Shown: positions 31,029 through 61,353, counted from the whole stretch's first letter. The stretch is 63,950 bases of DNA, filler included, from an uncultured bacterium (GCA_964609495.1; 10 parts of 10 records of this genome joined end to end with filler, not necessarily neighbours in it), one strand, 5' to 3'. The notes: generated by a model not told the origin, from the letters alone. A program made the numbers and translations.

Positions 31029-32252
31029 ATGATTATGAAACTTACAAGAACAGTCAAAATCAAACTTAATATTGATTCAAATAAGATTAAACCTACTATC
31101 AAGGCATATACTGAGGCATTTAACTATGTATGCAAGGTAGGATGGCAAGATGCTGACACTAATGGTGTATCTCTTCATCATAAAACTTATTATAAGATAA
31201 AGGAAAATTCTCCTTTGACATCTCAGCTTATCTGCTCTGCTAGAGTAAAAGCTACCGAAGCCCTCAAAGCAGTTGAGAAACAAAAGAAAAAGAAGCAGAA
31301 GGTTAGCTGCCCCCAGTCTAAACAATGTTCTATAAGATATGATGCTAGAAGTTATAATGTATGGTTTGATCGTAATGAAGTATCTATCAGCACCATAGAT
31401 GGTAGAAAAAGAATCCCTATTATTGTTCCTGAATACTTCAGACAGTATCTTACTTGGAAACGAACTTCTGCTGATCTGTTTATAAAAAAGAATAAGGCAT
31501 TTATTCGTATTATATTTGAGAAGGAAGTTACCGATCCCAAACCTATAGATAACTTTGTAGGTATAGATAGAGGTATTAACAAACTTGCGGTAACTTCTGA
31601 TAAACAATTCTTTAATGGTGGCGAAATTAAAAGGATTTCTAATAAATATAGGAATATGCGAAAATCCCTCCAATCTTGTGGTTCTAAATCTGCTAAAAGG
31701 CACCTTCGGAAAATATCTAAGAAGGAGAACCGTTTCCGTAGAGATGTGAACCACAGAATTAGTAAAGCTATTGTAGCTTCCCTCCCACCAGGCACCACAA
31801 TTATTCTTGAAGACCTCAAATCTATTTGACAGAGAGCTAGAATGCGTAAGAAACAACGCAGAGATCTTCACAATTGGAACTTCTACCAACTTGAGCAGTT
31901 TATTACTTATAAAGCACAAGCTAAAGGAATTAAGGTTGAATATGTTGATAGTCGCTACACCTCTCAGAAATGTTCCAGATGTGGCTATATCTCTCGTTCT
32001 AACCGTCAGTTTCAAAGTATCTTCAAGTGTAAGCAATGTGGTTTCTCCTTGAATGCTGATCTTAATGCGGCGCGAAACATTCGCCAGAATTACCTGGATG
32101 CTATATGCTACCCAGGCAAGGCTGTTGTCAACCAGCCTATTAAGGAAACTTTTGCTTCAAATAGGACTCAAGGTAAAAAAGTTTCCTTAAATCGTAGACT
32201 CCTCCTAAAAGAGGAGAGCTACAAGCCCTCGACTTTAGTCGTGGGTAGTTGA
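31029..32252 (+). pseudogene. tnpB: TnpB RNA-guided nuclease interrupted by one in-frame TGA (31827-31829)
   Basis: VGIDRG, ILEDL, CSRC/CKQC zinc ribbon, NADLNAARNI; the two listed ORFs are in the same frame, 12 nt apart. Confidence 0.9.
32140..32190 (-). mobile_element. 51-bp palindromic micro-element inserted in the tnpB 3' end
   Basis: TTAAGGAAACTTTT...AAAAGTTTCCTTAA with core AATAGGACTCAAGGT; matches 44826, 48008 and 61303 copies. Confidence 0.8.
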
Positions 32253-32253
32253 C

Positions 32254-32817
32254 CTAAAATTCTAAAATCTCCTTCTCCTTATCAGCTAAGATCTCTTCTA
32301 TCTTCTCTAATTCCTTGTCGGTTTTCTCCTGGATCTCCTTCAGCCTCCTATCCCTTTCATCTTCGGAGATATCGCTCTTCTTTTCTAATTTTTTTATCGT
32401 CTCATTCGAATCTCGACGAATATTGCGTATCGCCACTCTAGCATCCTCCGCCTTTTTCTTGATCAAGCGAACTAATTCCTGTCTTCTCTCCTGCGTAAGC
32501 TGGGGTATGGGAAGACGAATAATCCCCTTACCCTTTATGGGATTTAATCCCAAATCAGATTTCATAATAGCCTTTTCTACCTCTCCCATTATGTTATTAT
32601 CCCAAGGCTGAATTATCAATAAGCGAGGCTCTGGAGCGCTGATAGTGGCTAACTGATTGAGAGGAGTCATAGTCCCGTAATATTCGACTTTGATGTTATT
32701 CAAGAGGGCCGGACTGGCTCTTCCAGTCCGGATCGAGGATAAATCCCTCTTGAAGGAATCGATCGCTTTATCCATATGTTCATCGGTTTGCTTGAAGATC
32801 TCTTCAACTGTCGTCAT
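32254..32817 (-). CDS. frr: Ribosome recycling factor
   Basis: IRTGRASP, VEYYG..PLNQLA, ARVAIRNIRRD. Confidence 0.97.
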   Translation of the reverse strand: MTTVEEIFKQTDEHMDKAIDSFKRDLSSIRTGRASPALLNNIKVEYYGTMTPLNQLATISAPEPRLLIIQPWDNNIMGEVEKAIMKSDLGLNPIKGKGIIRLPIPQLTQERRQELVRLIKKKAEDARVAIRNIRRDSNETIKKLEKKSDISEDERDRRLKEIQEKTDKELEKIEEILADKEKEILEF

Positions 32818-32818
32818 T

Positions 32819-33535
32819 TCAATCCCCCTTAACTATAGTTCCTATATCCTCTCCTAAGATCGCCTTTTTTATGTTGCCCGGCTCAGTGGCATTGAAGACT
32901 CTGATCGATATTCCGGTGTCCATACATAAGGAGACCGCGGTAGCATCCATCGCCTTTAATCCCAGTTTCAAAACATCTATATATTTCAAACTCTTGTAGA
33001 GCTTAGCTTGAGGATTCCTCATAGGATCTGAATCATAGATCCCGTCCACCTTGGTTCCTTTCAGGATAATCTCCGCCTCGATCTCTGCGGCTCTAAGGGC
33101 CGCCGCAGTATCGGCGGAGAAGTAGGGACTTCCGGTCCCTGCCGCGAAGATCACTACTCGCTCCTTCTCCAAATGCCGAATCGCTCTTCGGCGAATGTAG
33201 GGTTCAGCTACCTCCGGCATAGAGATAGCCGTCTGAACCCTAGTCACAACTTCCATCTTCTCCAGAGAATCTTGCAAGGCTAGAGCATTTATTACTGTAG
33301 CTAACATACCCATATAGTCGCCAGAGGTTCGATCTATCCCCTGAGCACTTCCCTCAGATCCCCTGAAGATATTACCTCCTCCTACTACTATGGCTAGTTG
33401 AACTGATTTATTAGCTTCCTTTATCTCCCGAGAGAGCGAATCCAAAACCTTCGGATCGATACCATACCCCCTCTCTCCAGACAAGATCTCCCCGGAAAGC
33501 TTCAAGAGAACTCTCCTATATTTAAGTGAGGACAT
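32819..33535 (-). CDS. pyrH: Uridylate kinase
   Basis: [30 protein letters not shown]; start after GGAGG. Confidence 0.97.
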
Positions 33536-33555
33536 AGCCGCCTCCATTTAGTTAG

Positions 33556-34149
33556 CTATACTCCTAGCTGATATCTACTAAATCTTCTAACCACTATGTT
33601 CTCTCCTAGCTTAGCTATATTCTCATCTATCAACTCTCGGACCGTCTTCTCAGGATCTCTGATGAAGGGCTGCTCCATAAGGCACACCTCTTGGTAAAAC
33701 TTCTCTAGTCTGCCATTCACTATCTTCTCGATAACTTTTTCGGGCTTTCCCGTATCCTCAGCTTGCTTTCTCAGGATAACTTTCTTCTTCTCTATGACCT
33801 CGGGTGGCACCTTCTCCCTAACGATATAGTCTGGATTGGAAGCGGCAACCTGCATCGCTAAATCCTTCACTAAATTTTGGAATTGATCGGTTCTAGCCAC
33901 GAAATCGGTCTCGCAATTTACTTCTATTAATACTCCTATCTTACCGCCGGTATGAATGTAAGAGCCGATCGCCCCTTCGGAGGTGGCGCGGCCAGCCTTG
34001 GTTCTAGCTTGGGCTAATCCCTTCTCTCGGAGGAAATCCATCGCTTTCTGGAAATCTCCATTCGACTTCTGCAAGGCTCTTTTACAATCCATAATACCAG
34101 CTCCAGTTTTCCCGCGGAGCTCCTTCACCTGTTCTGCTGTAACGTTCAT
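33556..34149 (-). CDS. tsf: Elongation factor Ts (short form)
   Basis: VKELRGKTGAGIMDCK, EVNCETDFVA, GENIVVRRF. Confidence 0.97.
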   Translation of the reverse strand: MNVTAEQVKELRGKTGAGIMDCKRALQKSNGDFQKAMDFLREKGLAQARTKAGRATSEGAIGSYIHTGGKIGVLIEVNCETDFVARTDQFQNLVKDLAMQVAASNPDYIVREKVPPEVIEKKKVILRKQAEDTGKPEKVIEKIVNGRLEKFYQEVCLMEQPFIRDPEKTVRELIDENIAKLGENIVVRRFSRYQLGV

Positions 34150-34250
34150 ACTTGTTTTCTTTCCTCTCTCTTTCTTTAATTTTAATTATGCTTCTAAGGT
34201 CAAAAATTATTCAAGAGATACTAGTGGCTAGTTCCTTTTGAGTTAGATAG

Positions 34251-34364
34251 CTATAGATATCACCTCAAGAAATGGCACTAAAAGCGGACAGAAGTCAGTT
34301 ACACCTAATCGTTTTATAGCCTACTTGAATTTAGTGCCATTTCACAGGGTCTTATCTATAGATA
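34251..34364. repeat. MITE-like inverted-repeat element upstream of tsf
   Basis: GAAATGGCACTAAA (34269-34282) and TTTAGTGCCATTTC (34330-34343) perfect 14-bp IR; CTATAGATA present at both ends. Confidence 0.5.
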
Positions 34365-34556
34365 CCAGTGGCTCTAAAAAAGCAGATTCTAGACAACCAT
34401 TTCCTGCTNNNNNNNNNNNNNNNNNNNNNNNNNNNNNNNNNNNNNNNNNNNNTTAATTAATTAANNNNNNNNNNNNNNNNNNNNNNNNNNNNNNNNNNNN
34501 NNNNNNNNTTGGGTAGAGGAAATAGTAAAAATTGGAAGTAAATAGGGAGGGGGCGT

Positions 34557-36017
34557 ATGAATTCAAGTAAAGAGTTTAGAGTATGTCTCACTTTCGATGA
34601 CGTGCTTTTGGTGCCTCAGAAGTCGGAGGTGTTACCGAGGGATGTGGATGTATCCACTGATTTAGGAGCGGGAATAAAGTTAAGTCTTCCCTTTATATCC
34701 GCCGATATGGATACAGTAACCGAATCGAGGATGGCTATCGCTATGGCTAGAGAGGGAGGGTTGGGGATAATCCACAAGAATCTCAGTCCCGAGAAGCAGG
34801 CGGAGGAGGTGGAGACGGTTAAGAGATCGGAAAATGGTGTTATCTCCGACCCGATCACTGTGACTTCGGATACTCTTATCTCCAAGGCTCTGGAGATTAT
34901 GAGCCGCTTTCGAATATCTGGTATCCCCATCACTGATGACGGTAATAAACTAGTGGGGATCATCACTAACCGAGATCTTCGCTTTGTCACTGATACTAGC
35001 TTGCAAGTAAAAGCTCTGATGACCAAGGATAACTTGATCACTGCAGAAGAGGGAACTACTTTAGAGCAGGCTAAGAGCATCTTGCATCGGCATAGAATTG
35101 AGAAATTGCCCATTGTTAACGAGGAAGGCGAACTGAAGGGGCTCATAACTATCAAGGATATCGGGAAGGTTATGGACTATCCTTACGCCTCGAGGGATAA
35201 GCAAGGTCGACTTAGAGTTGGAGCTAGCGTAGGTGTAGGAAGGGGAGCTTTGGAAAGAACGGAAAGATTGGTAGATATAGGGATCGATATCATCGCAGTA
35301 TCTGCCGCTCATGGTCACTCCAAAGGTGTTATCGAGACGGTGGAGAATATTAGAAAGCACTTTCCCGATCTCCCGATCATCGCAGGTAATGTTGTGACAG
35401 CCGAGGGAACTTTCGAGCTGATTCAGGCAGGTGCTTCTTGCATTAAAGTGGGGCTAGGACCAGGTTCGATCTGCACGACTAGAATAGTCACTGGAGTGGG
35501 GATGCCCCAGCTTACTGCGATTATGGATTGTGCCGAAGAGGCGGATAAATACGATATTCCTATCATGGCTGATGGGGGTATAAAATACTCCGGTGATATC
35601 GTAAAAGCCTTAGCCGGGGGAGCAAGCACAGTTATGATCGGTGGCCTCTTCGCTGGGACTGATGAGGCTCCAGGAGCTGTAGAATATTATCAAGGACGCA
35701 CTTATAAAAGCTATCGAGGAATGGGATCTTTATCTGCGTTGCAGGAAGGGTCTAGGCAACGTTATGCTCAGGAGGGAGTCGCTAAGCTTGTTCCCGAGGG
35801 AGTGGAAGGAAGGGTGTTATTTAAGGGACCCCTAATCAATGTGATAGAGCAATTGATCGGAGGGGTGAAGAGCGGTATGGGATACTGCGGTGCTCATCAT
35901 CTAGGGGAGCTACGCGAGAAAGCTCAATTTGTAACGATTAGCTATGCCGGCTTACTGGAAAGCCATGTTCATGATATAGATATAACTAGAGAGGCGCCAA
36001 ATTATTGGAGGGCTTAA
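34557..36017 (+). CDS. guaB: IMP dehydrogenase
   Basis: LTFDDVLL, two CBS domains, [22 protein letters not shown]. Confidence 0.97.
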
Positions 36018-36291
36018 AGATAGCTCGATAAATAATGAGCTCAAGGGAGAAGCCTTTGCTTAGATTTATAGAAGTATGACCTGAAGACCCAAGGATAGAA
36101 GGCTCTGGGATTGATTGCCATTTTTTGTCTGGAGAACGCTTGATAATCTCGTATATTTGGGATATAATATATGCCTGCAAGTTGCTCTTTGAAAAGAGTA
36201 TAGGGCTGTATTAGAAATCCCTAATATGTCCAACTCGAAGGTTGGAAAAGAGAGTTGATCAAGCTGAACATAGTGATCTAAAATGGTATAA

Positions 36292-37584
36292 TTAATGCTT
36301 TCCGTTTCTCACTACTGCTAACTTATTAGCTACATCAAAAGCTAGGATTTTGGCTGGGGGATCTTTTTGGATCCAACCGTCTATCACTCGCTGGGGATTA
36401 TTCGTAGGGGATAGATGAGCTTTCTCAACCGTTTCATCACTTAAACCGCTGTAGAACCAAATCCGCTCTACTCTCTTTAACAACTCCGCGAACTTATAAG
36501 CTTTGTGAGTATATAGATGATATTCCCCTTTGATGCTTTCTAATACCTCATCGAGAGGCTTAGTTAATTCGTCATAAAAGAACTTCTTCGCCTCTTCATT
36601 AGGAGCTATCCCATTTTTGCATTCCGCTAAAAGTAGTATTTCTCCTCCATCTAGGACCGCGTTTTTGGTCAATTCCAATCCTCTTTGAGAGTTATATAAA
36701 CTCTCATCTTGAGGATATCCCCCGGGAGACACGACTAGATATTTAGCAGGTTCTACCGAGAAGCTGGCGATATTATCTACCTTAGCTATCCCCTCTGCGG
36801 TGACTTTCTCGATATTTCCGCTTGCTGACCAAACTATCTTATCCCCCGATACTATAGTCCCTAAGACGAAGATATCCGCATCTTTGACGATCAACTTCAT
36901 CGCCTCTAACATATCGTTGGCTAGGGGATTATCTCTTCTTTCTGGATCAGGATGGAAGGGGTGGTGAGCGAAGGTTGAGCGAGGATCTAGAGCTAGGCTA
37001 TGATTCATCTCGATGGTGCGGAAGGAACATATTCCGGGCAAGAAATCCTTCAAGGCGTTGGAGTAACCAGCGAAATAGTGATGCTTCATATCTGCGCCTA
37101 CGACAAATAGGTTCGCATCCAACAACTTTTCGTTAGCCCAAACCTCCGTTCCGATAGAGGTCTTCCCCATGTTTCTAAATTTATCGTTGAAACAGTCATT
37201 TATGAATATCCCTTCCGAGGGAAGCTCATATTTCTCGATGCTCTCTTTTATGTATTTCTTGATCTTGGCATTCTCAGGATTATCTATATCATGCGACCCG
37301 GTAGTGATCATAAACCGAACTTTCTTAGCCTCTTTCAAACGAGCAGAGAGACTCTCAACTATCACCTGATGGGGCTCTTTTCTAGTCCCATCCTCTATTA
37401 ACACTGTTACTGTTTTACCTTTAGCTAGGTCTTCTAATCTATCTCCATAAGGATTTTCCAAGGCTCTATTTATCGTTCCCCAAACATCATCATTAGCCTC
37501 TAAAGTCCGAGGTTTTATCAACTGAGCCAGATTATTATCCGGAATATTCAACGATAAGCTATTATCGCCCCAACTTATTTCCAT
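36292..37584 (-). CDS. LarA-superfamily (lactate racemase/DUF2088 domain) protein
   Basis: EDGTR, TGSH, HYFAGYS..K..LPG, SPGGYPQD..LY, AECKNG. Confidence 0.8.
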   Translation of the reverse strand: MEISWGDNSLSLNIPDNNLAQLIKPRTLEANDDVWGTINRALENPYGDRLEDLAKGKTVTVLIEDGTRKEPHQVIVESLSARLKEAKKVRFMITTGSHDIDNPENAKIKKYIKESIEKYELPSEGIFINDCFNDKFRNMGKTSIGTEVWANEKLLDANLFVVGADMKHHYFAGYSNALKDFLPGICSFRTIEMNHSLALDPRSTFAHHPFHPDPERRDNPLANDMLEAMKLIVKDADIFVLGTIVSGDKIVWSASGNIEKVTAEGIAKVDNIASFSVEPAKYLVVSPGGYPQDESLYNSQRGLELTKNAVLDGGEILLLAECKNGIAPNEEAKKFFYDELTKPLDEVLESIKGEYHLYTHKAYKFAELLKRVERIWFYSGLSDETVEKAHLSPTNNPQRVIDGWIQKDPPAKILAFDVANKLAVVRNGKH

Positions 37585-37618
37585 CGCTATCTACCTCCTT
37601 TTTTCTTTTTGTCCCTTA

Positions 37619-37647
37619 ATTATAGCATATACTATGAAGCTACGCAA
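37619..37647 (-). promoter_or_regulatory. Sigma70 promoter for the LarA-like gene
   Basis: Minus strand TTGCGT-N17-TATAAT with extended TG. Confidence 0.55.
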
Positions 37648-37755
37648 GCCTTTTCGATCATCTGGATTAAGTTATAATCCTTAATCTATATATAGCTATA
37701 ATTTCGCATTTTGGGGAGTGCTGAACTGAAGATTCATTTTCCCTAGGGATTTTGA

Positions 37756-37788
37756 GTAGGGGCGTGTTGCAAGCAACACACCCCCTAC
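37756..37788. repeat. Single GTAG-type REP hairpin
   Basis: GTAGGGGCGTGTTGC-aa-GCAACACACCCCCTAC. Confidence 0.65.
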
Positions 37789-38218
37789 GATAATCCGCAT
37801 TAATGCCAGATTTTCCAAACATCTGCGGAAGTATAGATATATCTTTAAAATAGAAAATTAGCTTCTCTATGAGGTTAATTAGGAGATCTTTATATAAGAA
37901 AATTAAATTTCAACATTTAGGTGATAACTTATTGACATTTTCCCAATGATATACTAAAATAGATATAAATTAAGATATCTATAACAAAATTTTATAATAC
38001 TACAATTTAGCATTTTTTGAAAATGCTAAATTGAAAGCTTAGTTTCCAAGCGACTTTTTGGGTAGAGGGTGTGGGTAATACAAACCTTGCAATAATCCCC
38101 ATTAATACTAGATTTTGAAAGATCTGAGAAAGTGTTATAGATAATGCAATAGATAAGATCACTATGCGACGATATAAACTGGGGGGGGAATCAAACGGGA
38201 ATATAGAAAGGAACTTTT

Positions 38219-39889: not shown

Positions 39890-40042
39890 GAATAGCCGAG
39901 GAAAGCGAGGGAGCTTACTGATTTTGAAGCGGTAGGCTTTCTCTATTTCACTGGATTGATTGCAATTTTTGGTATAGCAAGGGGGAGACTGTGTCTAAAT
40001 AATCATACTATTCCTATCCACTTTAACTCACAGGAGAGGATA

Positions 40043-40204: not shown

Positions 40205-40255
40205 CCTGTATTATACCAAAAATTTTATATTTGTCAACATTAAAAAAAACAGTCA

Positions 40256-41268: not shown

Positions 41269-41690
41269 TAGCGAAGATGGATAGGATAAGGGAGGTGACG
41301 GATAGGTCTTCATCTGTAGTGGGGAGGTTAGGGGAGAGATCACAACAGATTGGAAAAATCGTCTCTATCATCACTGAACTAGCCGAACAAATCAGTATGC
41401 TGGCACTTAGCGCCTCTATAGAGGCAGCTAAGGCCCAGGAATATGGAGAGGGCTTCGTAGTGGTTGCTAGAGAGATGAGAGAATTAGCGGACAGTTCAGG
41501 GAGTAGTGCCCTTCAGATCAGGAAGATAGTGAGCCACATNNNNNNNNNNNNNNNNNNNNNNNNNNNNNNNNNNNNNNNNNNNNNNNNNNNNNNNNNNNNN
41601 NNNNNNNNNNNNNNNNNNNNNNNNNNNNNNNNNNNNNNNTATCAAGGTTGGGATGCCGAGATGCCTCTTAGAATAGAAAAACCATGGTAG
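41269..41690 (+). CDS. Methyl-accepting chemotaxis protein paralogue, partial, with collapsed-repeat gap
   Basis: Near-identical to parts of 41697-44822 and the same C-terminus [16 protein letters not shown]; gap 41540-41639. Confidence 0.75.
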
Positions 41691-41696
41691 TTAATT

Positions 41697-44600
41697 ATGG
41701 TTGAAAGATCAAAAACTTCTAAAAATCGAAATAGAGTATTTATCAGTGAGATCGCTATAATACTTGCTGGGGGAGCGATAGCTCTTCCTTTCGTGATATA
41801 TTATATATTAATTAATACCCGCCTTACCCCTGGAGAATCTCACCATCTCACATTAATCCCTTTTTTAATTGTGCCAGCTATTATCCTGATTGGTCTATTC
41901 CTCCTCAGAAAACTTACCGAACCAATAGACAAATTCCTCCTATTAGATGAGACGAAGAGGGAGATAGAAGAAGATATTCTCATCAGAGCTCACATAAGAG
42001 CTTTAAATATGCCTCTACTAGTGACCATAACGCTATTAACGGTCGTCATAGTCGGTATTCTTCTAGGAACTATTTATATGATTCTAGCGGCAGGAAGCGA
42101 TGTTTCTACTGCTTTCAATATGTTCTTTAGCGCCCTTTTAGGCTTAATCCCTTTAAGTTTTTATGTCCTCTTTATTAGCGAGTCCAAATCGAGACAGATA
42201 TTGAGAAGGATCGTCTTAAAAAGGAAAGGGGATACCTCTCTTCCGCCCCATAAGGTGATGAAATTTAATCTCCAGATCAGACTCCTCTCCATATTCCTAG
42301 TGATAGTCCTATTTCCTATGGTAAATCTGGGTATCTTGTCTCGCTATCGAGCCGAGGAAGTTCTATTACGCACTACTGAAGACCTGCTGAGTTCAGCCAC
42401 CTTCCAATTAGGACAAGGGATCAATCTATTGGGAAGATATATAAATAACGAAGAGGAACTGTTGAAGATAGTTCAATCTCAGTGGGAGGATATGTATAGA
42501 GTTGAAAAGAAGATCCCCTTTCTTATAAATGAGAGGGGAGATATGATATTAAGTTCTGAGCCAACTATTGCCGAACAATTATGGAAAGCGCTTCAAAATG
42601 AATGGGAATCTGCAATAAAACGTTCCCCAGATAAATCTCTTAACTTGAAGGTAGCTTCAGAGGGATCAAGGCTCTTGGAAATCCGAAACTTAAACTACAT
42701 AGTAGGGTGGACTAAGCTCCCGAATAAAGGGTGGATCGTATTACAGGCTCAACCCTTATTTTATCTTCATAAACAGCTAAAGCTTTTAGTTAGACGGATC
42801 ACGATGATAGTAGTGATAAGCCTGGTAGCAATCTTCTTCATAGCGATCTTCTTTGCCAGGAGCGTAACCCTCCCCATCTCTCAGGTAGTCTCCATCCTCA
42901 AGGATATCGCTCAAGGAGAAGGAGATCTCACCAGACACCTGAATATCCAGACCAATAACGAGATCAGCCTTCTATCCACTTGGTTCAACAAGTTCGTTGA
43001 TAGCATCTTGAGGATAGTATCTCAGGTGAGGGATGCCTCCTTGAACGTTACTTCCTCAGCCCAGGAGTTATCATTAGTAGCTGAGGACATCAATGCAGGG
43101 ACGGAGGAAATATCGGCAGCGACGGAGGAGGTGACCTCGGGAGCGGAGGTGCAGAACAAGAGGGTGATGGAGACTTCGAGGACGCTGGAGGAGATGGGGG
43201 AGTTGATGGCGGAGGTGAGGAGGCAAGCGGAGAGGTTAGGGGAGGCGAGCAGGAGAGCGGATGAGGTAGCGAAGGCAGGGGGAGAGGCTGTGGGGGAGAT
43301 GGTAGCGAAGATGGATAGGATAAGGGAGGTGACGGATAGGTCTTCCTATATAGTGGAGAGGTTAGGGGAGAGATCACAACAGATTGGGAAAATCGTCTCT
43401 ATCATCACCGAACTAGCAAGACGAACTGATATGCTGGCTTTGAACGCGGCGATAGAAGCTTCTAAAGCTGGTGATTATGGTAGAGGCTTCGCAGTAGTGG
43501 CAGAGGAGGTTCGAAGCCTAGCGGACAGTTCAGGGAGTAGTGCCCTTCAGATCAGGAAGATAGTGAGCCACATCCAAGAGGAGACCGAGGAAGTCATCTC
43601 CTCAATGAAGAGGGGAGTGGTAGAGGTAGAGGAGGGAAGAGAAGTAGTAGCTAAGACTGGAGAAGCTCTCCAACAGATAGTTGATATGGTTCGAGAGATG
43701 GCTACTATGATCGAGCAGATAAGGGCCTCAGTTCAAGGGCAAGTCCAATCTGCCCAGAGGGTAGTAAAAGCGATAGATGAAGTGAGTGTGATAGCGGAGG
43801 AGAATGCCTCCAGTGCTTCTCAGGTGTCTGCCACGATAGAGGAGCAGGTGAGGTTGACGGAGAGGATGGTCGCTTTCTCTGAAGGTATGGAGCAGATGTC
43901 CGATAACCTCCGCAAACTAGTCTCCACCTTTAAACTCAACAGGCTTGGAGTGGCATTTCAGAGCTTCTCAAATCCCTTTTTCCTGAGCATGAAGGATAGT
44001 ATTGAGGATACTGCTCCGAAGCTAGGAGTGAAAGTGACCATCTCTAATGCCGAATATGATCTATCCCAGCAACTCAGAGCAATAGAAAGATTCATCCTTG
44101 AGAGAGTCGACGCGATCCTCTTGAATCCAGTTGACAGTTGGCGAATAGCTCCCGCAATCAGAGCAGCAAATAAGATCGGGATCCCGGTGATCACTATGGA
44201 TGTCAATGCTTTAGGAGAGGAGATCGAGATCGCTTCTTTCATAGCCTCCGATAACTTCCAAGCTGGGCAGTTATGTGCTGATTATATAGTTTCTAAATTA
44301 ACGGGCAGAGGCAAGATAGCTATTCTCGGTTGGGCGGAGATGGAGAGCTGTATTAAGCGACAGGATGGATTCAAGGCTTATCTAGGTAGATATCCTCAAA
44401 TAGAGGTAGTAGCGGAGATCGACACCCAAGGAGATATGAATTTAATAGAGAAAGCGATGACTGAGATATTGAGAAAGACCCCAGATCTTGAGGCTGTCTT
44501 TGGAGTTAACGATCCGATAGCCCTAAGAGCTTGGAAGGTAGTAAAGGAAGCTGAGAGAGAGCGCGAGGTATTTACAGTGGGAGTAGATGCTAATCCAGAG

Positions 44601-44822
44601 TCGATAGAGGCGATCAGATCTCAGCAGGGATATGATCTTACTATTGCTCAATTCCCTCGAGCGATAGGGAGGAGAGCTATAGAGACAGTATTCGATATTG
44701 TGGCGGGAAGAGAGGTAGAGAAAGAGCAACTTCTCAAAGTTATGCCGATCACTATAAATAACCTCGATAGTTATCAAGGTTGGGATGCCGAGATGCCTCT
44801 TAGAATAGAAAAACCATGGTAG
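41697..44822 (+). CDS. Methyl-accepting chemotaxis protein with C-terminal RbsB-like sugar-binding domain
   Basis: Multiple TMs, HAMP (GEGDLT), [21 protein letters not shown] tip, then [26 protein letters not shown] periplasmic-binding-protein fold. Confidence 0.9.
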
Positions 44823-44825: not shown

Positions 44826-44876
44826 AAAAGGGAACTTTTTTACCTTGAGTCCTATTGATTGCAAAAGTTCCCTTTT
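44826..44876 (+). mobile_element. 51-bp palindromic micro-element
   Basis: AAAAGGGAACTTTT..ACCTTGAGTCCTATT..AAAAGTTCCCTTTT, 3 nt after the MCP stop. Confidence 0.8.
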
Positions 44877-48007: not shown

Positions 48008-48061
48008 TTTAACCTTGAGTCCTATTTGAAGCAAAAGTTACCTTTTAAGGGTGAGGGGGGA
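48008..48061 (+). repeat. Partial 51-bp micro-element nested in a REP-like hairpin
   Basis: Nearly identical to 61314-61366. Confidence 0.75.
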
Positions 48062-48173
48062 TCATATCTTGAACCCACTAGCGAAAAACCGAGAATATAA
48101 TACTCCGATTATCTGCTCAAAGATCAAAAGGGGGAACTGAAGAAGTAACCCCTCTCCTTTGAGAGATGAGATA

Positions 48174-52514: not shown

Positions 52515-52516
52515 GG

Positions 52517-53566: not shown

Positions 53567-53758
53567 ATCGGTGTTCTCCTTTTCCAGAGGTAGATGGCTC
53601 CTCCCCTCTACCTCTCCTATATCAATTATTAGTAATTGAAAATTAGAATATCACTGCTGACCCGACTATTCTCTGCTTTCTAACTATCATCCTCTGTCTA
53701 TATACAGATATCACATCTAAAACTGCACTTCGCTACACTATATATAATTATTATATTA

Positions 53759-54496: not shown

Positions 54497-54653
54497 GCTC
54501 TCTTCCCTCTCTATCTCCTCTTCTATTGCTATTTCGTCTCCTGCTCTGGGCCANNNNNNNNNNNNNNNNNNNNNNNNNNNNNNNNNNNNNNNNNNNNTTA
54601 ATTAATTAANNNNNNNNNNNNNNNNNNNNNNNNNNNNNNNNNNNNNNNNNNNN

Positions 54654-55178
54654 GGAGTGGAGCTATCCAAATGGGCAGCGAGATATGCTAGTGATATGCT
54701 AGGAGTAGAGATATATAACGGAACATTAGAAGAGGCTACCTTCTCAGATTCCTTCTTCGACGCAGTTCATATCCATAATGTTTTGGAACATTGTGAAGAT
54801 CCCTATAGTGTTCTTCTGGAGATAAAGCGAATCCTGAAAGTTGGAGGGATGGTTGTAATCGAAATTCCTAATGGGATGAGCATAATATCCAAGTTAAATA
54901 TCCTTATGGGAAAGGGATACAAACCCCTTACACCTCCTCCTGAACACCTCTATTTCTTCACTCAGAAGACTCTAAGGGATATAGTCCTAAAGAGCGGCTT
55001 TGAGATAATCAAGGAGAAGCAGGAGAGTTTAGGCGATCCGATAAGGAGTTCGGCTTATCCTATAACCCTATCTAGCTCTTGGAAGGAGCAGATTTTGAAG
55101 TTAATATTTAGAATACATCTGGATATCCTCTTAAAAGCAGCCAATTTCCTCATCATAGTTGCTAGAAAGAGCAAATGA
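54654..55178 (+). CDS. Class I SAM-dependent methyltransferase (5' truncated)
   Basis: FDAVHIHNVLEH..LKVGG..PN, EHLYFFT. Confidence 0.85.
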   Translation, partial: GVELSKWAARYASDMLGVEIYNGTLEEATFSDSFFDAVHIHNVLEHCEDPYSVLLEIKRILKVGGMVVIEIPNGMSIISKLNILMGKGYKPLTPPPEHLYFFTQKTLRDIVLKSGFEIIKEKQESLGDPIRSSAYPITLSSSWKEQILKLIFRIHLDILLKAANFLIIVARKSK

Positions 55179-56737
55179 GTATAGACTTGAGAAAAGGAGT
55201 AGCTAAGAATACCTTCTTTGTCGCCTTCCTCAGCTTCGGAGGGATGATCCTAAATCTCCTGAAGGAGGTGATAATCGCCGCCAAGTTTGGGGCGAGCTAT
55301 CATCTGGATGCCTTTCTGATCGCTTTCATTATCCCGACGTTTGTAAGCACTTTATTAATTGGCGGAATAGATTCGGCTTACATTCCAGTTATAACTAAAT
55401 ATCTCAAGAAAGAGGATAGATCGCAATTTCTCTCTATCACCAGAAATTTTTTAAGCACTTTACTCATAGTTCTACTATTCTTAGCGGTTATTATATGGCT
55501 CTCCTCTCCGCTCTTAGTTCATCTATTAGCCCCTGGTTTCTCTGCTAAAGTCTCCCATCTTGCTATGCAGATGATATGGATAACAACATCTGCTATTATT
55601 TTCATTGGATTATCTGGTGCGCTTTCTGCTATCCTGAATACCTTCGGCTTATTCACAATACCTGCCCTTGGCTCTATCGTATTCATAGGCACTTCCATAG
55701 TTACTCTGTTGCTCCTCGTCGAGAAGTGGGGCATATATAGTTTGGCGGTAGGGGTGACCCTCTCGGCAATAGCTCAAGTTCTGCTTTTGATATTATCTCC
55801 GATTAACAGGCAGAAATTATTCACCACTGTCTATTTCGGGCTTGCTCATCCCGAAGTTAAGAAGATTTACCAGATGCTCTTGGTGGTTATTCTAGGGAGG
55901 ATGATCGCTCAAGCGAATCTGATCATAGATAGGGTGATAACCTCTGGATTACGAGAAGGTAGTATCTCCATTTTGAATTATGCTAATAGAGTAGCCTTCT
56001 TTCCCCTCACTCTGATCGTAGTCCCTATATCTACGATACTCCTTCCCAATCTATCCAGATATTTCAATGAGCGAAAACCCTCCGAATTTGCGAATCTTAC
56101 CTCTGCCGCAATCAGATATATGTTGATGTTGATCATCCCTATATCAGTTGGTCTTATACTTCTTCGAGAACCGGTAATAAGGATTCTATATGAAAGGGGA
56201 GCTTTCGATAGATCGGCTACCTACTCTAGTGGAAATACCCTGATCTACTATGCTATAGGTCTCTTCGCCAACGGAGTCTATGTGATCTTAAATACTGCTC
56301 TGTATGCTATGGGTGAACCGATGATGGTGGTTAAGATAGGAGGGACAACCTTGATCTTCAATATCATCCTCGATTGCATATTGAGCAGGCTTATGGGAGT
56401 CTCAGGGATCGCCCTGACGACCTCTATAGTCAGCACGATCTGGATGATACTCCTAATAGCTCTAATGAGGAAAAGATTCGAGGGGATATGCGATCGAAAA
56501 ATCCTCATAGCGGGCTTAAAGTTCTTAACTGTCTCCCTCATTATGGGAACGGCGATTTATTTTTATTCCAATTTTCCTCCTAACTTAATAGACATTGAAT
56601 CGTTATCTGGCCAGATATTTCTATTGGGGACTTCTTCGCTGTTGGGATGCTTTATCTATCTGGGGCTACTATATCTTGCTAAATCTGAAGAATTGTTCTA
56701 TCTTTTGAATTTAGTTAGGAATGTTCTGAAGATTTAA
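55175..56737 (+). CDS. murJ: MurJ/MviN-family flippase
   Basis: IAAKFGAS..DAFLIAF, GSISILNYANR, YERGAFD; many TM helices. Confidence 0.85.
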   Translation: MSIDLRKGVAKNTFFVAFLSFGGMILNLLKEVIIAAKFGASYHLDAFLIAFIIPTFVSTLLIGGIDSAYIPVITKYLKKEDRSQFLSITRNFLSTLLIVLLFLAVIIWLSSPLLVHLLAPGFSAKVSHLAMQMIWITTSAIIFIGLSGALSAILNTFGLFTIPALGSIVFIGTSIVTLLLLVEKWGIYSLAVGVTLSAIAQVLLLILSPINRQKLFTTVYFGLAHPEVKKIYQMLLVVILGRMIAQANLIIDRVITSGLREGSISILNYANRVAFFPLTLIVVPISTILLPNLSRYFNERKPSEFANLTSAAIRYMLMLIIPISVGLILLREPVIRILYERGAFDRSATYSSGNTLIYYAIGLFANGVYVILNTALYAMGEPMMVVKIGGTTLIFNIILDCILSRLMGVSGIALTTSIVSTIWMILLIALMRKRFEGICDRKILIAGLKFLTVSLIMGTAIYFYSNFPPNLIDIESLSGQIFLLGTSSLLGCFIYLGLLYLAKSEELFYLLNLVRNVLKI

Positions 56738-56790
56738 GAAATGCTGGTCAAAATACAGAATTTAGGGTATAATGTCAAGTGGGATGTCTT

Positions 56791-57774
56791 ATGAAGTTGG
56801 TGTCTGCTAACATCTTGAACTATAATCAAAAGCATTATCTTTCGCCTTGTCTCGCTTCCCTCTTGGCTCAGACCTATCCCGAAATAGAGATAAACTTTAT
56901 GGACAACGGGTCCTCTGATGGATCAGCTGAGTTCGTTAGGGAGAACTACCCCGAGATAAACTTGATCGAGAATAAGGAGAATCTCTGGTTCACTGGAGGA
57001 CATAACAAGGGGATACGCGAGTCTAAGGGGGATTATATCCTCATTCTCAATACCGATATCGTTCTTCTGCCAAATTTCGTGGAGGAGATGGTCAAGGCGA
57101 TGGAGAGAAGGGATGATAAGAAGATAGGGGCGGTTCAAGGAAAAATTTTTTACCTTCCTCCAGATCAGGAGAGGCCAAGGGAGGAGGGAGAGAGGATAAT
57201 AGATACTACGGGGACCGTGATCTACAAGAGTAGGAGGAACTTCGATCGAGGGCAGGGGGAGAAAGATGAGGGACAGTATGATAGGATCGAATACGTCTTT
57301 TGGGCTGATGCTTGTGCTGGATTGTATAGTCGGGAGATGTTAGAGGATATAGCAGTAGAGGGAGAATACTTCGATGAGACCTTCCTAGCTTATCGAGAGA
57401 TAATAGATATGGCTTGGCGAGCTAGAGCCAGGGGGTGGGAAGTGATCTATACTCCTTATGCCATCGCCCATCATCATCGTGGCTTCAGCCACGAGGCCAG
57501 AAGAAAACAGTCTCCCTTCATAAGGGAACTTTCCTATCGCAATAGATATCTAACCCTTATCAAAAATGATTCATTGAAAGGAATCATCAAAGGGCTTCCT
57601 CAATTAGCCGCCTTTGAGATAGCTATGTTGGGATACGTTCTCCTCGTTGAGCCTCATCTTCTCAAGGCTTTGTTTCAGGTATTCAAGCTACTACCTAAAG
57701 CTCGACGTAAGAGGAGGATAATTAGAAGTAGGCGATTAGTATCTGATGATGAGATATTGAAATGGTTTCTATAA
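56791..57774 (+). CDS. Glycosyltransferase family 2
   Basis: DNGSSDGS, ILILNTD, FDETFLAY. Confidence 0.9.
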   Translation: MKLVSANILNYNQKHYLSPCLASLLAQTYPEIEINFMDNGSSDGSAEFVRENYPEINLIENKENLWFTGGHNKGIRESKGDYILILNTDIVLLPNFVEEMVKAMERRDDKKIGAVQGKIFYLPPDQERPREEGERIIDTTGTVIYKSRRNFDRGQGEKDEGQYDRIEYVFWADACAGLYSREMLEDIAVEGEYFDETFLAYREIIDMAWRARARGWEVIYTPYAIAHHHRGFSHEARRKQSPFIRELSYRNRYLTLIKNDSLKGIIKGLPQLAAFEIAMLGYVLLVEPHLLKALFQVFKLLPKARRKRRIIRSRRLVSDDEILKWFL

Positions 57775-59387
57775 CCAAGATATTTAACAAAATCAATATA
57801 TATTTGCTTATTATACTCCTCTTATCAGCGATATCTTGCCTCATCATTTATCAGAATGAACTGATAAATCGTGGTCCTCCTAAGTGGGATGAGGCTACTC
57901 ACTTTATGTTCGGGGTCAGGATATATCAAGACATAGTGAGAGGAAAGTTCATCTTTTTCCTAGAGGATACTTTTAGGCAAGATTTATGGCCATTCGTCTA
58001 TTCTTGGCAACTGGCGCTCTTCTTCCTCATAACTGGAGATTGCAGCATAACTTCCGCTAGAATCCTAAGCTTAATTCTCTTCTTCTTCTCATCATTAGTT
58101 CTATATGCTCTGGGAAAAGAGGTCACGAAGGATGACGATCGCTTGGCAGGTGCGATCACCAGCTTCCTATTCCTCATCTCTCCTCTGCCGATGTTATTCT
58201 CAGTAGAGGCTATGTTGGAGATGCCCGGATTGCTGGCCTCTTCCCTGGCCTTGCTAGCTTATATCAAAGCTAAGGAGAATAACAAGGGATTATATCTTTT
58301 GACCGGGTTTTTAGTAGCGGCTGTATTCTTAATAAAATATAATTTTGGTCTTCATCTTATAATTATGCTCATCATTATGTTTCTGGTGGATACTCGACTC
58401 AAACTTAAAAGGATTCTGTTAGAGGATAACCCCTACTCATATCTATTTTTGCCTTTGATTGGCATCCTGATTATATGGTTTGCCTTCCCCAGCTTTAAGT
58501 CGAAGATCTACCCGTTTCTTCTTCTGTCGGAAAGCACTACCTACTATCCCGCCTCGGAGTTCTACACTTGGAAAGGATTCATTTACTATCCTATCAGTCT
58601 ATTCAAGGACTATAGTTCATCAGTATTCATCTTCGCAATAACTATTATCTCTTTTATATTATCCTTTAGGGAATGGAGAAACAGACAAGTTAAGATATTG
58701 CTCATCTTCTTCATCTCCGGGTTTTTGTCGCTTATGATTCTCTCCATTAAGCAAGGTAAATTTTTGATCACTATTATGCCCGCCCTATGGGTCCTCACTT
58801 CGAACCAGGTGACTAAGGCGATCTCGAAAGTTGCCAGAAGCCGATCTATGAAGTGGGGATTAGCGATCCTATCCCTGGTCCTAATAGTTCCTGGAATACT
58901 TAATTTATATGGAGGGCGACCCACAGACTCCGATGAGGATATAGATGTATATAGAGCTCTGGATTTCATCTCGGAGCAGATAGATCCCACTCAGTTCACC
59001 ATGATCTTAGGGGAGTCCAACGATATAAGTCCAGATCTTGTTGACTGGTGGATGGTGAAAAAGACAGGGCTCTTTCATCGCGATTTGAGATTGATACGTC
59101 CATATCGCCCCCCTAGTTCCTCGACTTATGAGAGGGAATTGGATAGGATACTCAAAGCTATCGAAATCCCTTATATCGTTGCTATTGAGATGAAATCGGC
59201 AGTTCGGCGGGATTCTTGGGAGAAATGGGATGAAAAAATAGTTGGTTGGAGAGCCGCTTATATCGAGCCCCTTCAGAAGAGAGATGATTATCACCTAAGC
59301 GCGGCTAGAGAATTTACTAATCCAGAGATGACGATTAAGATCTATTCTAACTCTAAAGTCTTCGGTGAGGAGGTCAAAGATAAGTGA
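57762..59387 (+). CDS. GT-C membrane glycosyltransferase (PMT/ArnT-like)
   Basis: WDEATH loop after the first TM, many TM helices, LIKYN motif, soluble C-terminal domain. Confidence 0.75.
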   Translation: MVSITKIFNKINIYLLIILLLSAISCLIIYQNELINRGPPKWDEATHFMFGVRIYQDIVRGKFIFFLEDTFRQDLWPFVYSWQLALFFLITGDCSITSARILSLILFFFSSLVLYALGKEVTKDDDRLAGAITSFLFLISPLPMLFSVEAMLEMPGLLASSLALLAYIKAKENNKGLYLLTGFLVAAVFLIKYNFGLHLIIMLIIMFLVDTRLKLKRILLEDNPYSYLFLPLIGILIIWFAFPSFKSKIYPFLLLSESTTYYPASEFYTWKGFIYYPISLFKDYSSSVFIFAITIISFILSFREWRNRQVKILLIFFISGFLSLMILSIKQGKFLITIMPALWVLTSNQVTKAISKVARSRSMKWGLAILSLVLIVPGILNLYGGRPTDSDEDIDVYRALDFISEQIDPTQFTMILGESNDISPDLVDWWMVKKTGLFHRDLRLIRPYRPPSSSTYERELDRILKAIEIPYIVAIEMKSAVRRDSWEKWDEKIVGWRAAYIEPLQKRDDYHLSAAREFTNPEMTIKIYSNSKVFGEEVKDK

Positions 59388-60829
59388 ATATATTGATGCT
59401 CAATCCCCCATTCTTAGATAAATTCTCCCGCAGTCAGCGATCTCCGGCGGTAACTAAGAGCGGAACTTTATATTACCCTATATGGCTAGCTTATGCCACC
59501 GGTGCTCTGGAGGAGAGAGGGTTTCCCGTGAAGCTCGTCGATGCAGAAGCCCGAGGTTATAGTCTCTCCGAGGCGCTCGACGAGGTTCAGGATTTCAATC
59601 CCCACCTGATAGTGATAGATACCAGCACTCCCAGTATCTATAACGATGTTAAGGTTGCTGAGGCGATGAAGGACACCTTCAAACAGGCTTATGTCGTGCT
59701 AGTGGGGACTCACGTTTCCGCTCTTCCCACCGAGGTCTTATCGCTTAGCGATAAGATAGATGCTGTCGCTCGAAGGGAATATGACGAGACCTTGTGTGAT
59801 TTAGCTTTTACCCTCGATTCCCAAGGAGATTTAACTCAGGTAGCAGGAATAAGCTTTCGACAGGGGAATGAGATAATCCACAATCCCGATAGGAAGCCCT
59901 TGGAGGATCTGGATTCCCTGCCCTTCGTCAGTAAGGTGTATCGGAAGCATCTTAGGATAGAGGATTACTTCTATGCTATCTGTCGCTATCCTCAAGTTGC
60001 TATCGTCACTGGACGAGGCTGTCCTTATAGATGCACTTATTGTCTATTTCCTCAAACGCTTCACGGAAGGAAAGTTCGCTATCGCAGGGTGGAGAGCGTG
60101 GTGGATGAATTGGAGTTCATAGCAAATGAACTCCCGCAGGTTAAAGAGGTCTTCATCGAGGATGATACCTTAACTGTGAATAAGAAGAGATGTTTGGAGC
60201 TCTCAGATGAGATATTGAGGAGAGGGCTGAAGATCACTTGGACAGCTAACTCCAGAGCTGACATCGATCTGGAAACGCTTAAAAGTTTGAAGGCGGCGGG
60301 ATGTAGACTCCTCTGTGTAGGGGTGGAGAGTGGCGTCCAAGAGATATTAGATAACATTCATAAGGGGATAAAGCTGGATCAGATCAGGCAATTTATGAGA
60401 GATGCTAAAAAGGCAAAGGTCCTAATTCACGGATGTTTCTTAGTGGGAGGGCCAGGGGAGACGAAGGAGACGCTGAAGAAGACCCTTGATTTTGCTAAAG
60501 AGCTGAATCCTGATACCGTTCAATTCTTTCCCTTGATGGTTTATCCGGGCACCGAAGCCTATGAATGGGCTAAGACGAGCGGATATCTCACCACTCTTGA
60601 TTTTTCTCAATGGCTGACTCCAGAGGGATTGCATAACTGTGTGGTGAGCAGACCCGGACTCTCGAACAAGGAATTAGTCGCTTTCTGTGATGAGGCGCGT
60701 CGCAGATTCTATTTACGCCCCCGATATATATTAGGCAAACTAAAGCAATCTCTCACCAACTCCGAGGAGGCTAGAAGGACATTTAAATCGAGCAGAACAT
60801 TCTTTAGATATCTATTTAGATTGTCGTGA
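59384..60829 (+). CDS. B12-binding radical SAM protein (HpnJ-like)
   Basis: GRGCPYRCTYC CX3CX2C motif, N-terminal cobalamin-binding-like domain, GVESG, YPGT. Confidence 0.88.
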   Translation: MNILMLNPPFLDKFSRSQRSPAVTKSGTLYYPIWLAYATGALEERGFPVKLVDAEARGYSLSEALDEVQDFNPHLIVIDTSTPSIYNDVKVAEAMKDTFKQAYVVLVGTHVSALPTEVLSLSDKIDAVARREYDETLCDLAFTLDSQGDLTQVAGISFRQGNEIIHNPDRKPLEDLDSLPFVSKVYRKHLRIEDYFYAICRYPQVAIVTGRGCPYRCTYCLFPQTLHGRKVRYRRVESVVDELEFIANELPQVKEVFIEDDTLTVNKKRCLELSDEILRRGLKITWTANSRADIDLETLKSLKAAGCRLLCVGVESGVQEILDNIHKGIKLDQIRQFMRDAKKAKVLIHGCFLVGGPGETKETLKKTLDFAKELNPDTVQFFPLMVYPGTEAYEWAKTSGYLTTLDFSQWLTPEGLHNCVVSRPGLSNKELVAFCDEARRRFYLRPRYILGKLKQSLTNSEEARRTFKSSRTFFRYLFRLS

Positions 60830-60929
60830 CCCACCTCCAGCCTCTTAGATAGTTTTTGAGAAATTAATCGGACCGCCCTCAGAGGAGATAACTTATGATC
60901 CAGTTAATATTTCAAGGACATAAAATAAG

Positions 60930-60963
60930 AAGCTGGAGAGCTTAATGATAAACTCTCCAGCTT
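60930..60963. terminator. Hairpin between convergent genes
   Basis: AAGCTGGAGAG...CTCTCCAGCTT. Confidence 0.65.
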
Positions 60964-60986
60964 ATTTAACCAATCTCTACTTATCT

Positions 60987-61196
60987 TTACTTAACTATCG
61001 CCATCTTCTCAAGAGCTTCCACTTTCCTCTCCTCATCTCTTGCTTCTAGCTTGTAGATATATACCCCATTGTCTATTAACTCTCCTTTCTCATCTAAGCC
61101 GTCCCATTCATACTCGTTGTATCCTGCTTCAGATGGCAATCCCTCTATCTTCCTCACTAATTCCCCGGCTACGGTGTAGAGCTTCAAGGTTACTCT
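60987..61196 (-). CDS. C-terminal FlgD-Ig-like domain of a larger protein (5' truncated)
   Basis: LYTVAGELVR..WDGLDEKGELIDNGVYIYKL. Confidence 0.8.
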   Translation of the reverse strand, partial: RVTLKLYTVAGELVRKIEGLPSEAGYNEYEWDGLDEKGELIDNGVYIYKLEARDEERKVEALEKMAIVK

Positions 61197-61302
61197 NNNN
61201 NNNNNNNNNNNNNNNNNNNNNNNNNNNNNNNNNNNNNNNNTTAATTAATTAANNNNNNNNNNNNNNNNNNNNNNNNNNNNNNNNNNNNNNNNNNNNAGGG
61301 AT

Positions 61303-61353
61303 AAAAGGTAACTTTTTAACCTTGAGTCCTATTTGAAGCAAAAGTTACCTTCT
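61303..61353 (+). mobile_element. 51-bp palindromic micro-element nested in a REP-like hairpin
   Basis: AGGGAT[AAAAGGTAACTTTT..AAAAGTTACCTTCT]AAGGGTGAGGGGGG. Confidence 0.8.

Follow-up and report, generated by a model that had tools for sequence, protein, structure and literature searches.

To our knowledge, it is still not settled how the smallest bacterial repeats, such as REP singlets, SDRs and RPEs, move. Insertion sequences of the IS200/IS605 family, as studied by Barabas in 2008 and Ton-Hoang in 2010, reportedly transpose without target duplication, are recognised through their hairpins in single-stranded DNA and insert beside a short specific sequence. The SDR1-8 repeats of Nostocaceae, which Elhai et al. 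are said to have described in 2008, are tiny, proposed-mobile repeats of 21-27 nt that carry compensatory mutations, are nested in each other and in mini-transposons and have no known enzyme. The available part of one source mentions an insertion of SDR5 into HIP1 and gives SDRs as restricted to Nostocaceae (PMC5861425). According to excerpts of another, REPs and REPINs are short, abundant and mostly extragenic palindromes, thought to be mobilised in trans by RAYT, for which a hairpin in single-stranded DNA or mRNA is predicted; in REPINs compensatory changes are common and excision is clean (Bertels and Rainey 2011, PMC3116915). The Rickettsia RPEs, as portrayed in part of a third source, are palindromic selfish repeats of ~150 bp, restricted to Rickettsia, which lie in frame in unrelated metabolic genes; their translation adds a peptide to the product, and the gene is not destroyed (PMC10969869). 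Here, we analysed a 51-nt hairpin element present in a stretch of 63,950 nucleotides, filler included (hereafter the window), from an uncultured bacterium (GCA_964609495.1), and confirmed that this element is real and recently mobile.

The window consists of the whole contigs C191-C199 and C298 of one metagenome-assembled genome (G000), joined by N spacers. The assembly comprises 3,781,453 bases in 349 contigs with 43.8% G+C; its rated completeness is 99.45% and its contamination 4.26%. A crude gene map, built from the longest open reading frames, contains 3,063 genes and is 87% coding.

The evidence for mobility comes from filled and empty sites. An exact-pattern scan of metagenomes recovered 48 loci, of which 17 were >99% identical to G000 and the rest 88-97% identical and syntenic. 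Gapped alignment of these diverged loci against G000 revealed 15 hairpin-bearing indels, with a net size of 51 nt in seven (L049, L056, L058, L059, L072, L077 and L094), 50 nt in two (L055, where the copy is in G000, and L080) and 52 nt in one (L053). Nested double elements gave net sizes of 102, 102 and 103 nt (L071, L078 and L051), and two truncated or poorly aligned cases gave 39 and 41 nt. In addition, L048 has one further nested piece in G000 only, and L057 has two tandem copies without counterpart on C8. In three events the inserted piece was exactly T plus the 49-nt core. A nested copy in the loop is tolerated, and the pair still moves as a 102-nt unit. Separate BLAST searches with the left and right element flanks were used to find paralogous empty sites, and 327 flank-pair matches were obtained, within the loop of the element itself as well as within three host repeats. 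An earlier note on this DNA had postulated an extremely small non-autonomous element and proposed a comparison of filled and empty sites; the postulate is supported in so far as the sequence is non-coding, 51 nt long and present or absent at orthologous as well as paralogous sites.

With regard to the samples, near-identical and 88-97% identical contigs to G000 are present in several metagenome data sets. Contigs of four sequencing runs covering 20 kb of C5 were short and broken at repeats, and no 50-nt left-out event was present among the alignments listed. This region (C5:25372-45371, L130) consists of short co-directional genes with more than ten element copies in the spacers, and a repeat at L130:1335-2001 reached a summed contig depth of 46-230-fold in the four runs.

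The size of the family was examined at several levels of stringency. The 15-nt core ACCTTGAGTCCTATT occurs four times in the window against 0.21 expected, a number that none of 100 shuffles reached, and genome-wide it was found 34 times with at most one mismatch (26 exact, 8 with one change) versus 3 for the reversed control. A looser loop-plus-arm pattern with at most two mismatches gave 83 matches in the genome and none for the control. Using nhmmer with a 70-copy seed, we obtained 231 hits in G000, or 230 without overlaps, among which 162 were full-length (model positions 1-4 to 46-49) and 114 were ungapped 49-mers. The consensus is (T/A)AAAGG-N-AACTTTT-kw-ACCTTGAGTyyTrTT-NNNNG-CAAAAGTT-N'-CCTTT(A/T), that is, an A/T-rich 14-bp stem with the arms (T/A)AAAGG-N-AACTTTT and AAAAGTT-N'-CCTTT(A/T) and a 23-nt loop. 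In the loop, an asymmetric core, ACCTTGAGTyyTrTT, is conserved and a pentamer is variable; ACCTTGAGT is nearly invariant. A second type has the arms TCTGGTAAC/GTTACCAGA and the related loop AACCTTATATATTTTTG. At least 21 complete type-II copies among the matches listed occupy one fixed place in the type-I loop (CTTTTkAA/.../CACTTGAG, slashes marking the junctions here and below), and the type-II copy at C33:7969 has other flanks. At loop positions 31-35 of the 49-nt core, before GCAAAAG, the pentamer is hypervariable; its sequences form two classes, NGARG (TGAAG, GGAAG, CGAGG) and NYCNG (GCCTG, GACTG, ACCGG); no link between pentamer class and flanks or arm variant was seen over all copies.

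Beyond G000 and these metagenomes, the exact loop-plus-arm pattern had no match in genome_contigs, which holds one genome for each of 185,579 species. An arms-only pattern found four single palindromes there, from unrelated taxa and with unrelated loops, which were rejected as chance look-alikes and not family members. G000 is the sole genome of its phylum in the collection searched and its 40 nearest 'relatives' are related to it at domain level only; the hairpin pattern was absent from all 40. A literature search on general terms, not by this sequence, found no description of the 51-nt hairpin family.

To describe the stem we used 56 distinct copies from G000 and the metagenome loci. Standard pairs filled 91.3% of the 840 cells, versus 88.1 ± 0.7% in shuffles, and the covariation score was 0.146, versus 0.071 in shuffles; neither value was reached by any of 500 shuffles. 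When the partner column was slid by one to three positions, pairing fell to 43-75%. It had been claimed that one arm position differs in each complete copy of the window yet stays paired, and this position indeed reads A:T, G:C and T:A in the three complete copies. In the 56-copy set it is A:U in 27, G:C in 20, U:A in 4, G:U in 4 and otherwise in 1, and genome-wide (n=108) it is A:T in 38, T:A in 36, G:C in 20 and otherwise in 14. The outer bases covary as well, as had also been claimed: the outermost pair, just beyond the 49-nt core, is A:U (A:T) in 20, U:A (T:A) in 20, G:U (G:T) in 5 and otherwise in 11 of the 56 copies. The next outward pair is unpaired in 47 of 56, and the palindrome is thus 51 nt long.

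Over the whole genome, 1,368 of 1,482 stem cells were Watson-Crick, 26 were of G:T type and 88 were mismatched, many of the mismatches coming from chimeras that combine an AAAGG arm with a CCAGA arm. Stem variants with perfect pairing numbered nine, namely A (25 copies), G (15), T (7), TCTGG..C (6), TCTGG (5), two with TAAGG (3 and 1), GGGGAC (1) and AAAGAAAAC (1). Together with a 48-nt copy with the arms AATGATAAC/GTTATCATT, these variants point to some ten changes on both sides of the stem, several from A:T to T:A, and the compensated variants are mostly multi-copy lineages. At several stem positions it is pairing, and not base identity, that is conserved, the pairing being kept by changes on both sides; this is what the collection and alignment of genome copies, advised in the earlier note, brought out. 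One-sided mismatches were spread over about 30 distinct stems, and a tally of the stem table gave 23 of G:T type and 18 of A:C type. These one-sided changes look as if inserted copies decay neutrally and only well-paired ones propagate. The idea that the arms are continually copied from each other in place is disfavoured, because G:T-type and A:C-type one-sided mismatches are about equally frequent, and one-sided changes are common among single copies.

In the window itself, all four previously reported copies are present, and a hidden Markov model built from the genome copies found only these four. They and the adjoining features are the following:

30996..32252, plus strand: broken tnpB in two open frames (30996-31829 and 31842-32252), with copy 1 in its 3' end and in the would-be omega RNA region.
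32140..32190, minus strand: copy 1, complete 51-nt element (TTAAGGAAAC...GTTTCCTTAA), the plus strand of which is translated in the C-terminal tnpB frame as KETFASNRTQGKKVSL.
32219..32250, minus strand: IS200/IS605-type end hairpin (CCCACGACtaaaGTCGAGGG then CTTGTAG) adjoining copy 1; the same type flanks other tnpB/tnpA remnants in the genome.
44826..44876, plus strand: copy 2, complete 51-nt element (AAAAGGGAAC...GTTCCCTTTT), intergenic.
48008..48046, plus strand: copy 3, the 3' 39 nt of the element, cut by the start of contig C198.
61303..61353, plus strand: copy 4, complete element inside host repeat A (agggat/.../aagggtgagggg), with one outer mismatch (CCTTCT).
61354..61385, plus strand: right part of host repeat A (aagggtgaggggggattatatcttgaac); hairpin-free paralogues read gggagagggatagggtgaggg.

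Folded as single-stranded DNA, the three complete copies form a stem of 12-14 bp with an open 23-nt loop (-7.8 to -10.4 kcal/mol, z from -2.9 to -4.2). Copy 2 begins 4 nt past the end of a 1041-aa open reading frame (41697-44822), and copy 3 is followed by the right half of host repeat A (aagggtgaggggggat). The placement of copy 1 in the tnpB 3'/omegaRNA region was upheld by a Cas12f1-like_TNB domain match in the broken tnpB (C195:4162-4362, equal to window 31881-32081) and by the tnpB frame (...NADLNAARNI...NQPI-KETFASNRTQGKKVSL-...), which is open straight across the hairpin. The one paralogue of copy 1, on C305, carries part of the same hairpin, the rest being deleted, so copy 1 has travelled with the insertion sequence. 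Copies 3 and 4 had been assigned to REP-like hairpins, and they do lie inside a multi-copy repeat, beside a CCCTCTCCC...GGGAGAGGG hairpin. An empty site reading GATAGG had been proposed for both sites that could be reconstructed; this is confirmed for copies 3 and 4, with at least 12 empty paralogues reading gggagagggatagggtgaggg; for copy 1, no empty paralogue was found in the genome. Two N runs of 100 bases each, at window 30554-30653 and 41540-41639, are masked stretches inside C195 and C197 and not joins.

Genome-wide, most copies lie between genes (126 of 162, versus 523 of 5,000 random places); 22 are inside an open reading frame (4,235 of the random places) and 14 overlap the edge of one (242 of the random places). 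Of the intergenic copies, 88 are in tandem, 9 in convergent and 6 in divergent gaps, similar to the background of 1,586, 142 and 164. The loop has the same direction as the genes in 47 cases and the opposite direction in 41, and there is no orientation bias with respect to GC skew, which here mostly tracks gene strand (r = 0.96). Among 100 distances to a predicted start codon, 25 are 7-24 nt upstream. No Rfam family reached threshold in the window, and the one permissive hit was rejected as a chance match to a miRNA model (26.6 bits against a cut-off of 59).

The view that the element inserts into other mobile DNA holds in part: copies do occur in a tnpB 3' end, in repeats resembling PATEs (palindrome-associated transposable elements) and in copies of the element itself, but this is not a specialty, and 57 of 71 intact type-I copies have distinct flanks. 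Three host repeats hold the hairpin at fixed places and have many empty paralogues each, including host repeat A (gggagagggat/agggtgaggg), a second repeat (cacgagggga(g)agggaac) and host repeat C (ggggagggtg/atttaagg). They carry GC hairpins of the form CCCTCTCCC-acga-GGGGAGAGGG, which resemble the ends of resident IscB (CCCCTACC-acga-GGGTAGGGG) and TnpB (CCCACGAC-tgaag-GTCGTGGG) elements. The host-repeat family as such is ~150-200 nt long and has dozens of copies, with a further hairpin, CCCCTCCC-tcgacg-GGGAGGGG, besides the one just given. It is found for example at C128:1560-1740, C14:7150 and C75:2283 and 15591, as well as in the window flanks 48047-48075 and 61354-61385. It looks like a miniature IS200/IS605-type derivative, and its own presence also differs between populations (L049/C128 and L067/C109).

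At least ten copies are located in long open frames, which continue through the element and translate it into 17 residues, with the peptide (E)KGTFASNRTQGKKVPF in one direction and KKELFYLESYLKQKFPF in the other. By reading of the consensus, three of its six frames are stop-free, and because 51 nt equals 17 codons, a clean insertion keeps the frame and may survive as a 17-residue loop. In HypF, residues 7-775 align to PDB 3vth (E 2e-234) with ~19 extra residues exactly at the element, and in a phosphoglucomutase-like protein the alignment is split into 3-132 and 170-493 around it. The Pfam match of the GlyS beta subunit is in two stretches, the first of which ends at residue 343, and the element occupies 347-363. 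The element is within the matched domain of a GAF histidine kinase, beside the matched domains of a protein with a RACo linker and beside that of a Wzy_C protein; its location in a pyrK-like gene on C77 was judged by eye only. Such open frames run through the element, so gene calls may be confused, and scaffold gaps (N runs) fall exactly at two copies (C16:17738-17844 and C41:4423-4522). At the C16 gap the same element copy is duplicated on either side, which looks like a repeat-caused assembly effect.

More often than any other piece, it is the 51-nt palindrome itself that is inserted, and no target duplication of fixed length accompanies it. Identity at the junctions, which might be taken for a duplication, varies from 0 to 4 nt; it is at least 1 nt in 12 of 13 complete events and at least 2 nt in six, often TA or AA. 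A TA target duplication was considered and rejected because, with junctions read by hand, it fails at host repeat C (gggtg/atttaagg), at the C8 site and at the L049 site. The motif YCT(n)A(n), with at least one T and any number of A, precedes the element at 14 of 57 distinct sites and its reverse complement follows it at 8 of 57, compared with a background of 5% (before any AAGG). A G-rich purine tract is found within 10 nt in 47 of 109 copies, with a background of 10% per side or ~19% for either side. The preferred flank resembles the element's own 3' end (...TCCTTTA), which would explain why the element forms tandem copies, enters its own loop at CTTTTTA and inserts upstream of Shine-Dalgarno-like AAGGAGG, the empty site tctagaTAAGGAGGG being an example located just upstream of such a sequence.

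A moving enzyme was sought in G000 by Pfam searches, and no transposase with matching ends, intact Y1 transposase or reverse transcriptase was found. The matches were one Y1_Tnp fragment (an 80-aa open frame on C343, next to parA), four TnpB, six IscB-type RRXRR (some at contig ends), two DDE_Tnp_1, one rve over the cut-off and one weak, and one Resolvase. The same searches gave no match for DDE_3 (IS630/DDE_3), IS110 or RVT_1 (one candidate scored, none matched), and none for Y2_Tnp and Rep_1, for which control genomes likewise gave no match. The earlier note had also advised a search for a transposase gene flanked by the same ends; there was none, and at the nine transposase/nuclease loci examined the hairpin arms are not terminal repeats. 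Eighteen genes that are each flanked by two nearby element copies are housekeeping genes, except one IscB. The assembly is fragmented, and a repeated or plasmid-borne enzyme gene may be missing from it.

Several of the loci found in this search deserve description. On the short contig C343 (1-1691), the truncated IS200-like Y1 transposase (69-80 aa open) adjoins an intact ParA-like gene and has a TnpB-type end hairpin behind it; the contig may be plasmid DNA, and no hairpin arm was found on it. Intact IscB genes (RRXRR plus HNH) are present at C77:9003-10484 and C31:4080-5590, in elements bounded by CCCCTAC-type hairpins; four more partial IscB matches lie at contig ends, and the four TnpB genes have a different end hairpin. 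IscB was rejected as a partner at both intact loci. On C77, where the gene is between two hairpins, it has its own CCCCTACC end hairpins, and one copy of our element is in the pyrK-like gene and the other outside the right end; on C31 the nearest copy is ~300 nt outside the left-end hairpin of the IscB element.

Taking these results together, we lean slightly towards regarding the family as non-autonomous mobile DNA of which each unit consists of nothing but a single hairpin. That it transposes as folded single-stranded DNA, by means of a trans-acting enzyme of the HUH/Y1 cut-and-rejoin kind, is a more tentative proposal, to which we give somewhat less than an even chance. An enzyme supplied in trans would read the stem by shape and the loop by sequence, and would cut and rejoin without staggered cuts, like the HUH/Y1 transposases of IS200/IS605 and RAYT type. 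Insertion would take place preferentially behind a pyrimidine-rich YCT(n)A(n) resembling the element's own 3' end. Copies with a mispaired stem would stop moving, so that only paired variants would multiply, and insertions in genes could survive as the 17-residue loops described above. Single-stranded DNA transposition in this host is supported by the TnpB and IscB matches, the Y1_Tnp fragment and the IS200/IS605-like GC hairpins in the host repeats.

Several points weigh against this proposal or against the evidence for movement on which it builds. The assembly, in spite of its completeness of 99.45%, contains no intact Y1 transposase, only the 80-aa fragment on C343, and the end hairpins of the resident IS200/IS605 elements (CCCACGAC... 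and CCCCTACC...) are short, GC-rich and unrelated to the A/T-rich stem. Known IS200/IS605 elements need two different ends, and here there is one symmetric hairpin. The lagging-strand signature reported for IS200/IS605 is not seen, since the loop shows no bias with gene direction or GC skew. The target motif is present at only 21 of 57 sites, and the junction identity of at least 1 nt in nearly all complete events makes a 1-nt duplication possible. With regard to the filled sites, 25 of 35 full-length copies on diverged contigs could be placed, 15 being metagenome-only and 10 shared (one opposite an N run), but the loci had been picked for containing a copy and the metagenome-only share is therefore biased upward. 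Presence or absence by itself also gives no order of the two states; the direction follows from paralogous repeats that exist with and without the hairpin and from distant gene homologues that lack the segment.

Among other explanations, it is improbable that the element is an ordinary miniature inverted-repeat transposable element (MITE), in which a DDE transposase would recognise the 14-bp arms as double-stranded terminal inverted repeats and make a duplication of 1-2 bp, and the covariation would reflect a few master copies. The perfect 14-bp inverted arms, the frequent junction identity, the two DDE_Tnp_1 genes and rve fragments and the multi-copy nature of most compensated stem variants would all fit such an origin. 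However, a fixed duplication would give one size, whereas the net size ranges over 50-52 nt and the junction identity over 0-4 nt, and a TA duplication fails at the three sites named above. Moreover, the arms are near none of the nine transposase/nuclease loci examined, the IS630/DDE_3 domain was not found in G000, and, for a protein that reads the bases, it is difficult to account for two-sided stem changes that arose independently at least about ten times.

It is also doubtful that the element has no dedicated enzyme and is spread by host replication or repair, for example through hairpin extrusion at a fork, with template switching or microhomology-primed copying to end-like sites. The searches of transposase and replication-protein families that gave no cognate, the resemblance of insertion sites to the element's own terminus and the short, variable microhomology at junctions are what such a process predicts. 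Against this, the inserted unit is precise (51 nt in seven of 15 events), the conserved asymmetric loop core (ACCTTGAGT) points to sequence-specific recognition, and some 200 dispersed copies are not known to arise in this way.

Another possibility, which we rate as unlikely, is a new class of mobile DNA in which the stem and loop signal alone is moved by an enzyme outside the known transposases, such as a nicking or replication protein of the host or a HUH-like protein yet to be described, that would nick at or beside the conserved loop or end motif, as at rolling-circle origins; insertion would be guided by the likeness of the target to the element's own 3' end. If true, no smaller element would have documented filled and empty sites, and the hairpin would be a natural source of 17-residue protein insertions.

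It is very unlikely that the hairpin, instead of being selfish DNA, serves as a structured RNA or as a transcription signal (terminator, attenuator or protein-binding hairpin) which selection has spread and kept. The stem is followed by a T run in both directions, the preference for intergenic places is strong, and about a quarter of the copies are close upstream of predicted start codons, all of which would suit such a signal; yet the asymmetric loop has no orientation bias and the spread over tandem, convergent and divergent gaps is like the background. Furthermore, copies lie in the frames of conserved genes and are nested in each other, more than half of the alignable sites differ between close populations, and no Rfam family was assigned at threshold in the window. 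Hardly credible, finally, is movement by reverse transcription of an RNA intermediate, the second arm being synthesised through fold-back priming: although this would account for arms that are paired at birth, for the lack of target duplication and for the location of most copies in transcribed operon spacers, the RVT_1 domain was not found in the assembly, orientation is unbiased with respect to transcription, and the junctions have neither poly-A nor another 3' tail.

The non-autonomous one-hairpin element that we favour offers a clean case, since the unit is a single hairpin of precisely 51 nt, many independent filled and empty sites exist between two natural populations, and nested copies move. 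Together with a stem in which only pairing matters and a loop constrained in sequence, these features define what a mobilising enzyme must recognise, and provide a ready oligonucleotide substrate. The in-frame copies show that conserved enzymes of organisms other than Rickettsia can also acquire 17-residue loops from selfish DNA.

When compared with the known systems, the element resembles REPINs in being an abundant, mostly extragenic palindrome with compensatory stem changes and clean empty sites. However, a REPIN, according to the excerpted source, consists of two inverted REPs held 71 or 110 bp apart by a spacer, whereas here there is a single 14-bp stem in 51 nt, the arms of which are not palindromes. 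Also, no repeat-flanked RAYT (Y1_Tnp) gene was found in G000, and the present copies are located inside genes and each other as well. The likeness to SDRs lies in the tiny size, the nesting, the occurrence in mini-transposons, the compensatory stem changes and the lack of a known enzyme. It differs from them, in a comparison by description only, in its length of 51 nt, its unrelated uncultured lineage, its filled and empty orthologous sites and its in-frame insertions; HIP1 is not enriched in G000 (89 GCGATCGC in 3.78 Mb). With RPEs it shares in-frame translated insertions (HypF, phosphoglucomutase-like protein, GlyS, GAF kinase, RACo and Wzy_C), but it is 51 nt (17 codons) long and mostly intergenic, RPEs again being compared by description and not by sequence.

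The IS200/IS605 family and PATEs have in common with it the lack of a fixed target duplication, and the family is resident in G000 (TnpB, IscB, the Y1 fragment and PATE-like repeats). In contrast to the one symmetric A/T-rich hairpin with no strand bias detected, their two distinct ends are short GC-rich hairpins, and the resident ends CCCACGAC...GTCGTGGG and CCCCTACC...GGTAGGGG are unrelated to the element's arms. A fixed tetra- or pentanucleotide target would be expected for them, whereas here YCT(n)A(n) is enriched and absent from most sites. As to DDE-type MITEs, terminal inverted repeats are present, a constant-length duplication is not, and a parent insertion sequence with the same repeats was not found at the nine loci. 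Since the element lacks a defining feature of REPINs, of SDRs and of RPEs, we have filed it under none of these names; it belongs to the known kind of small palindromic non-autonomous repeats, as a new variant.

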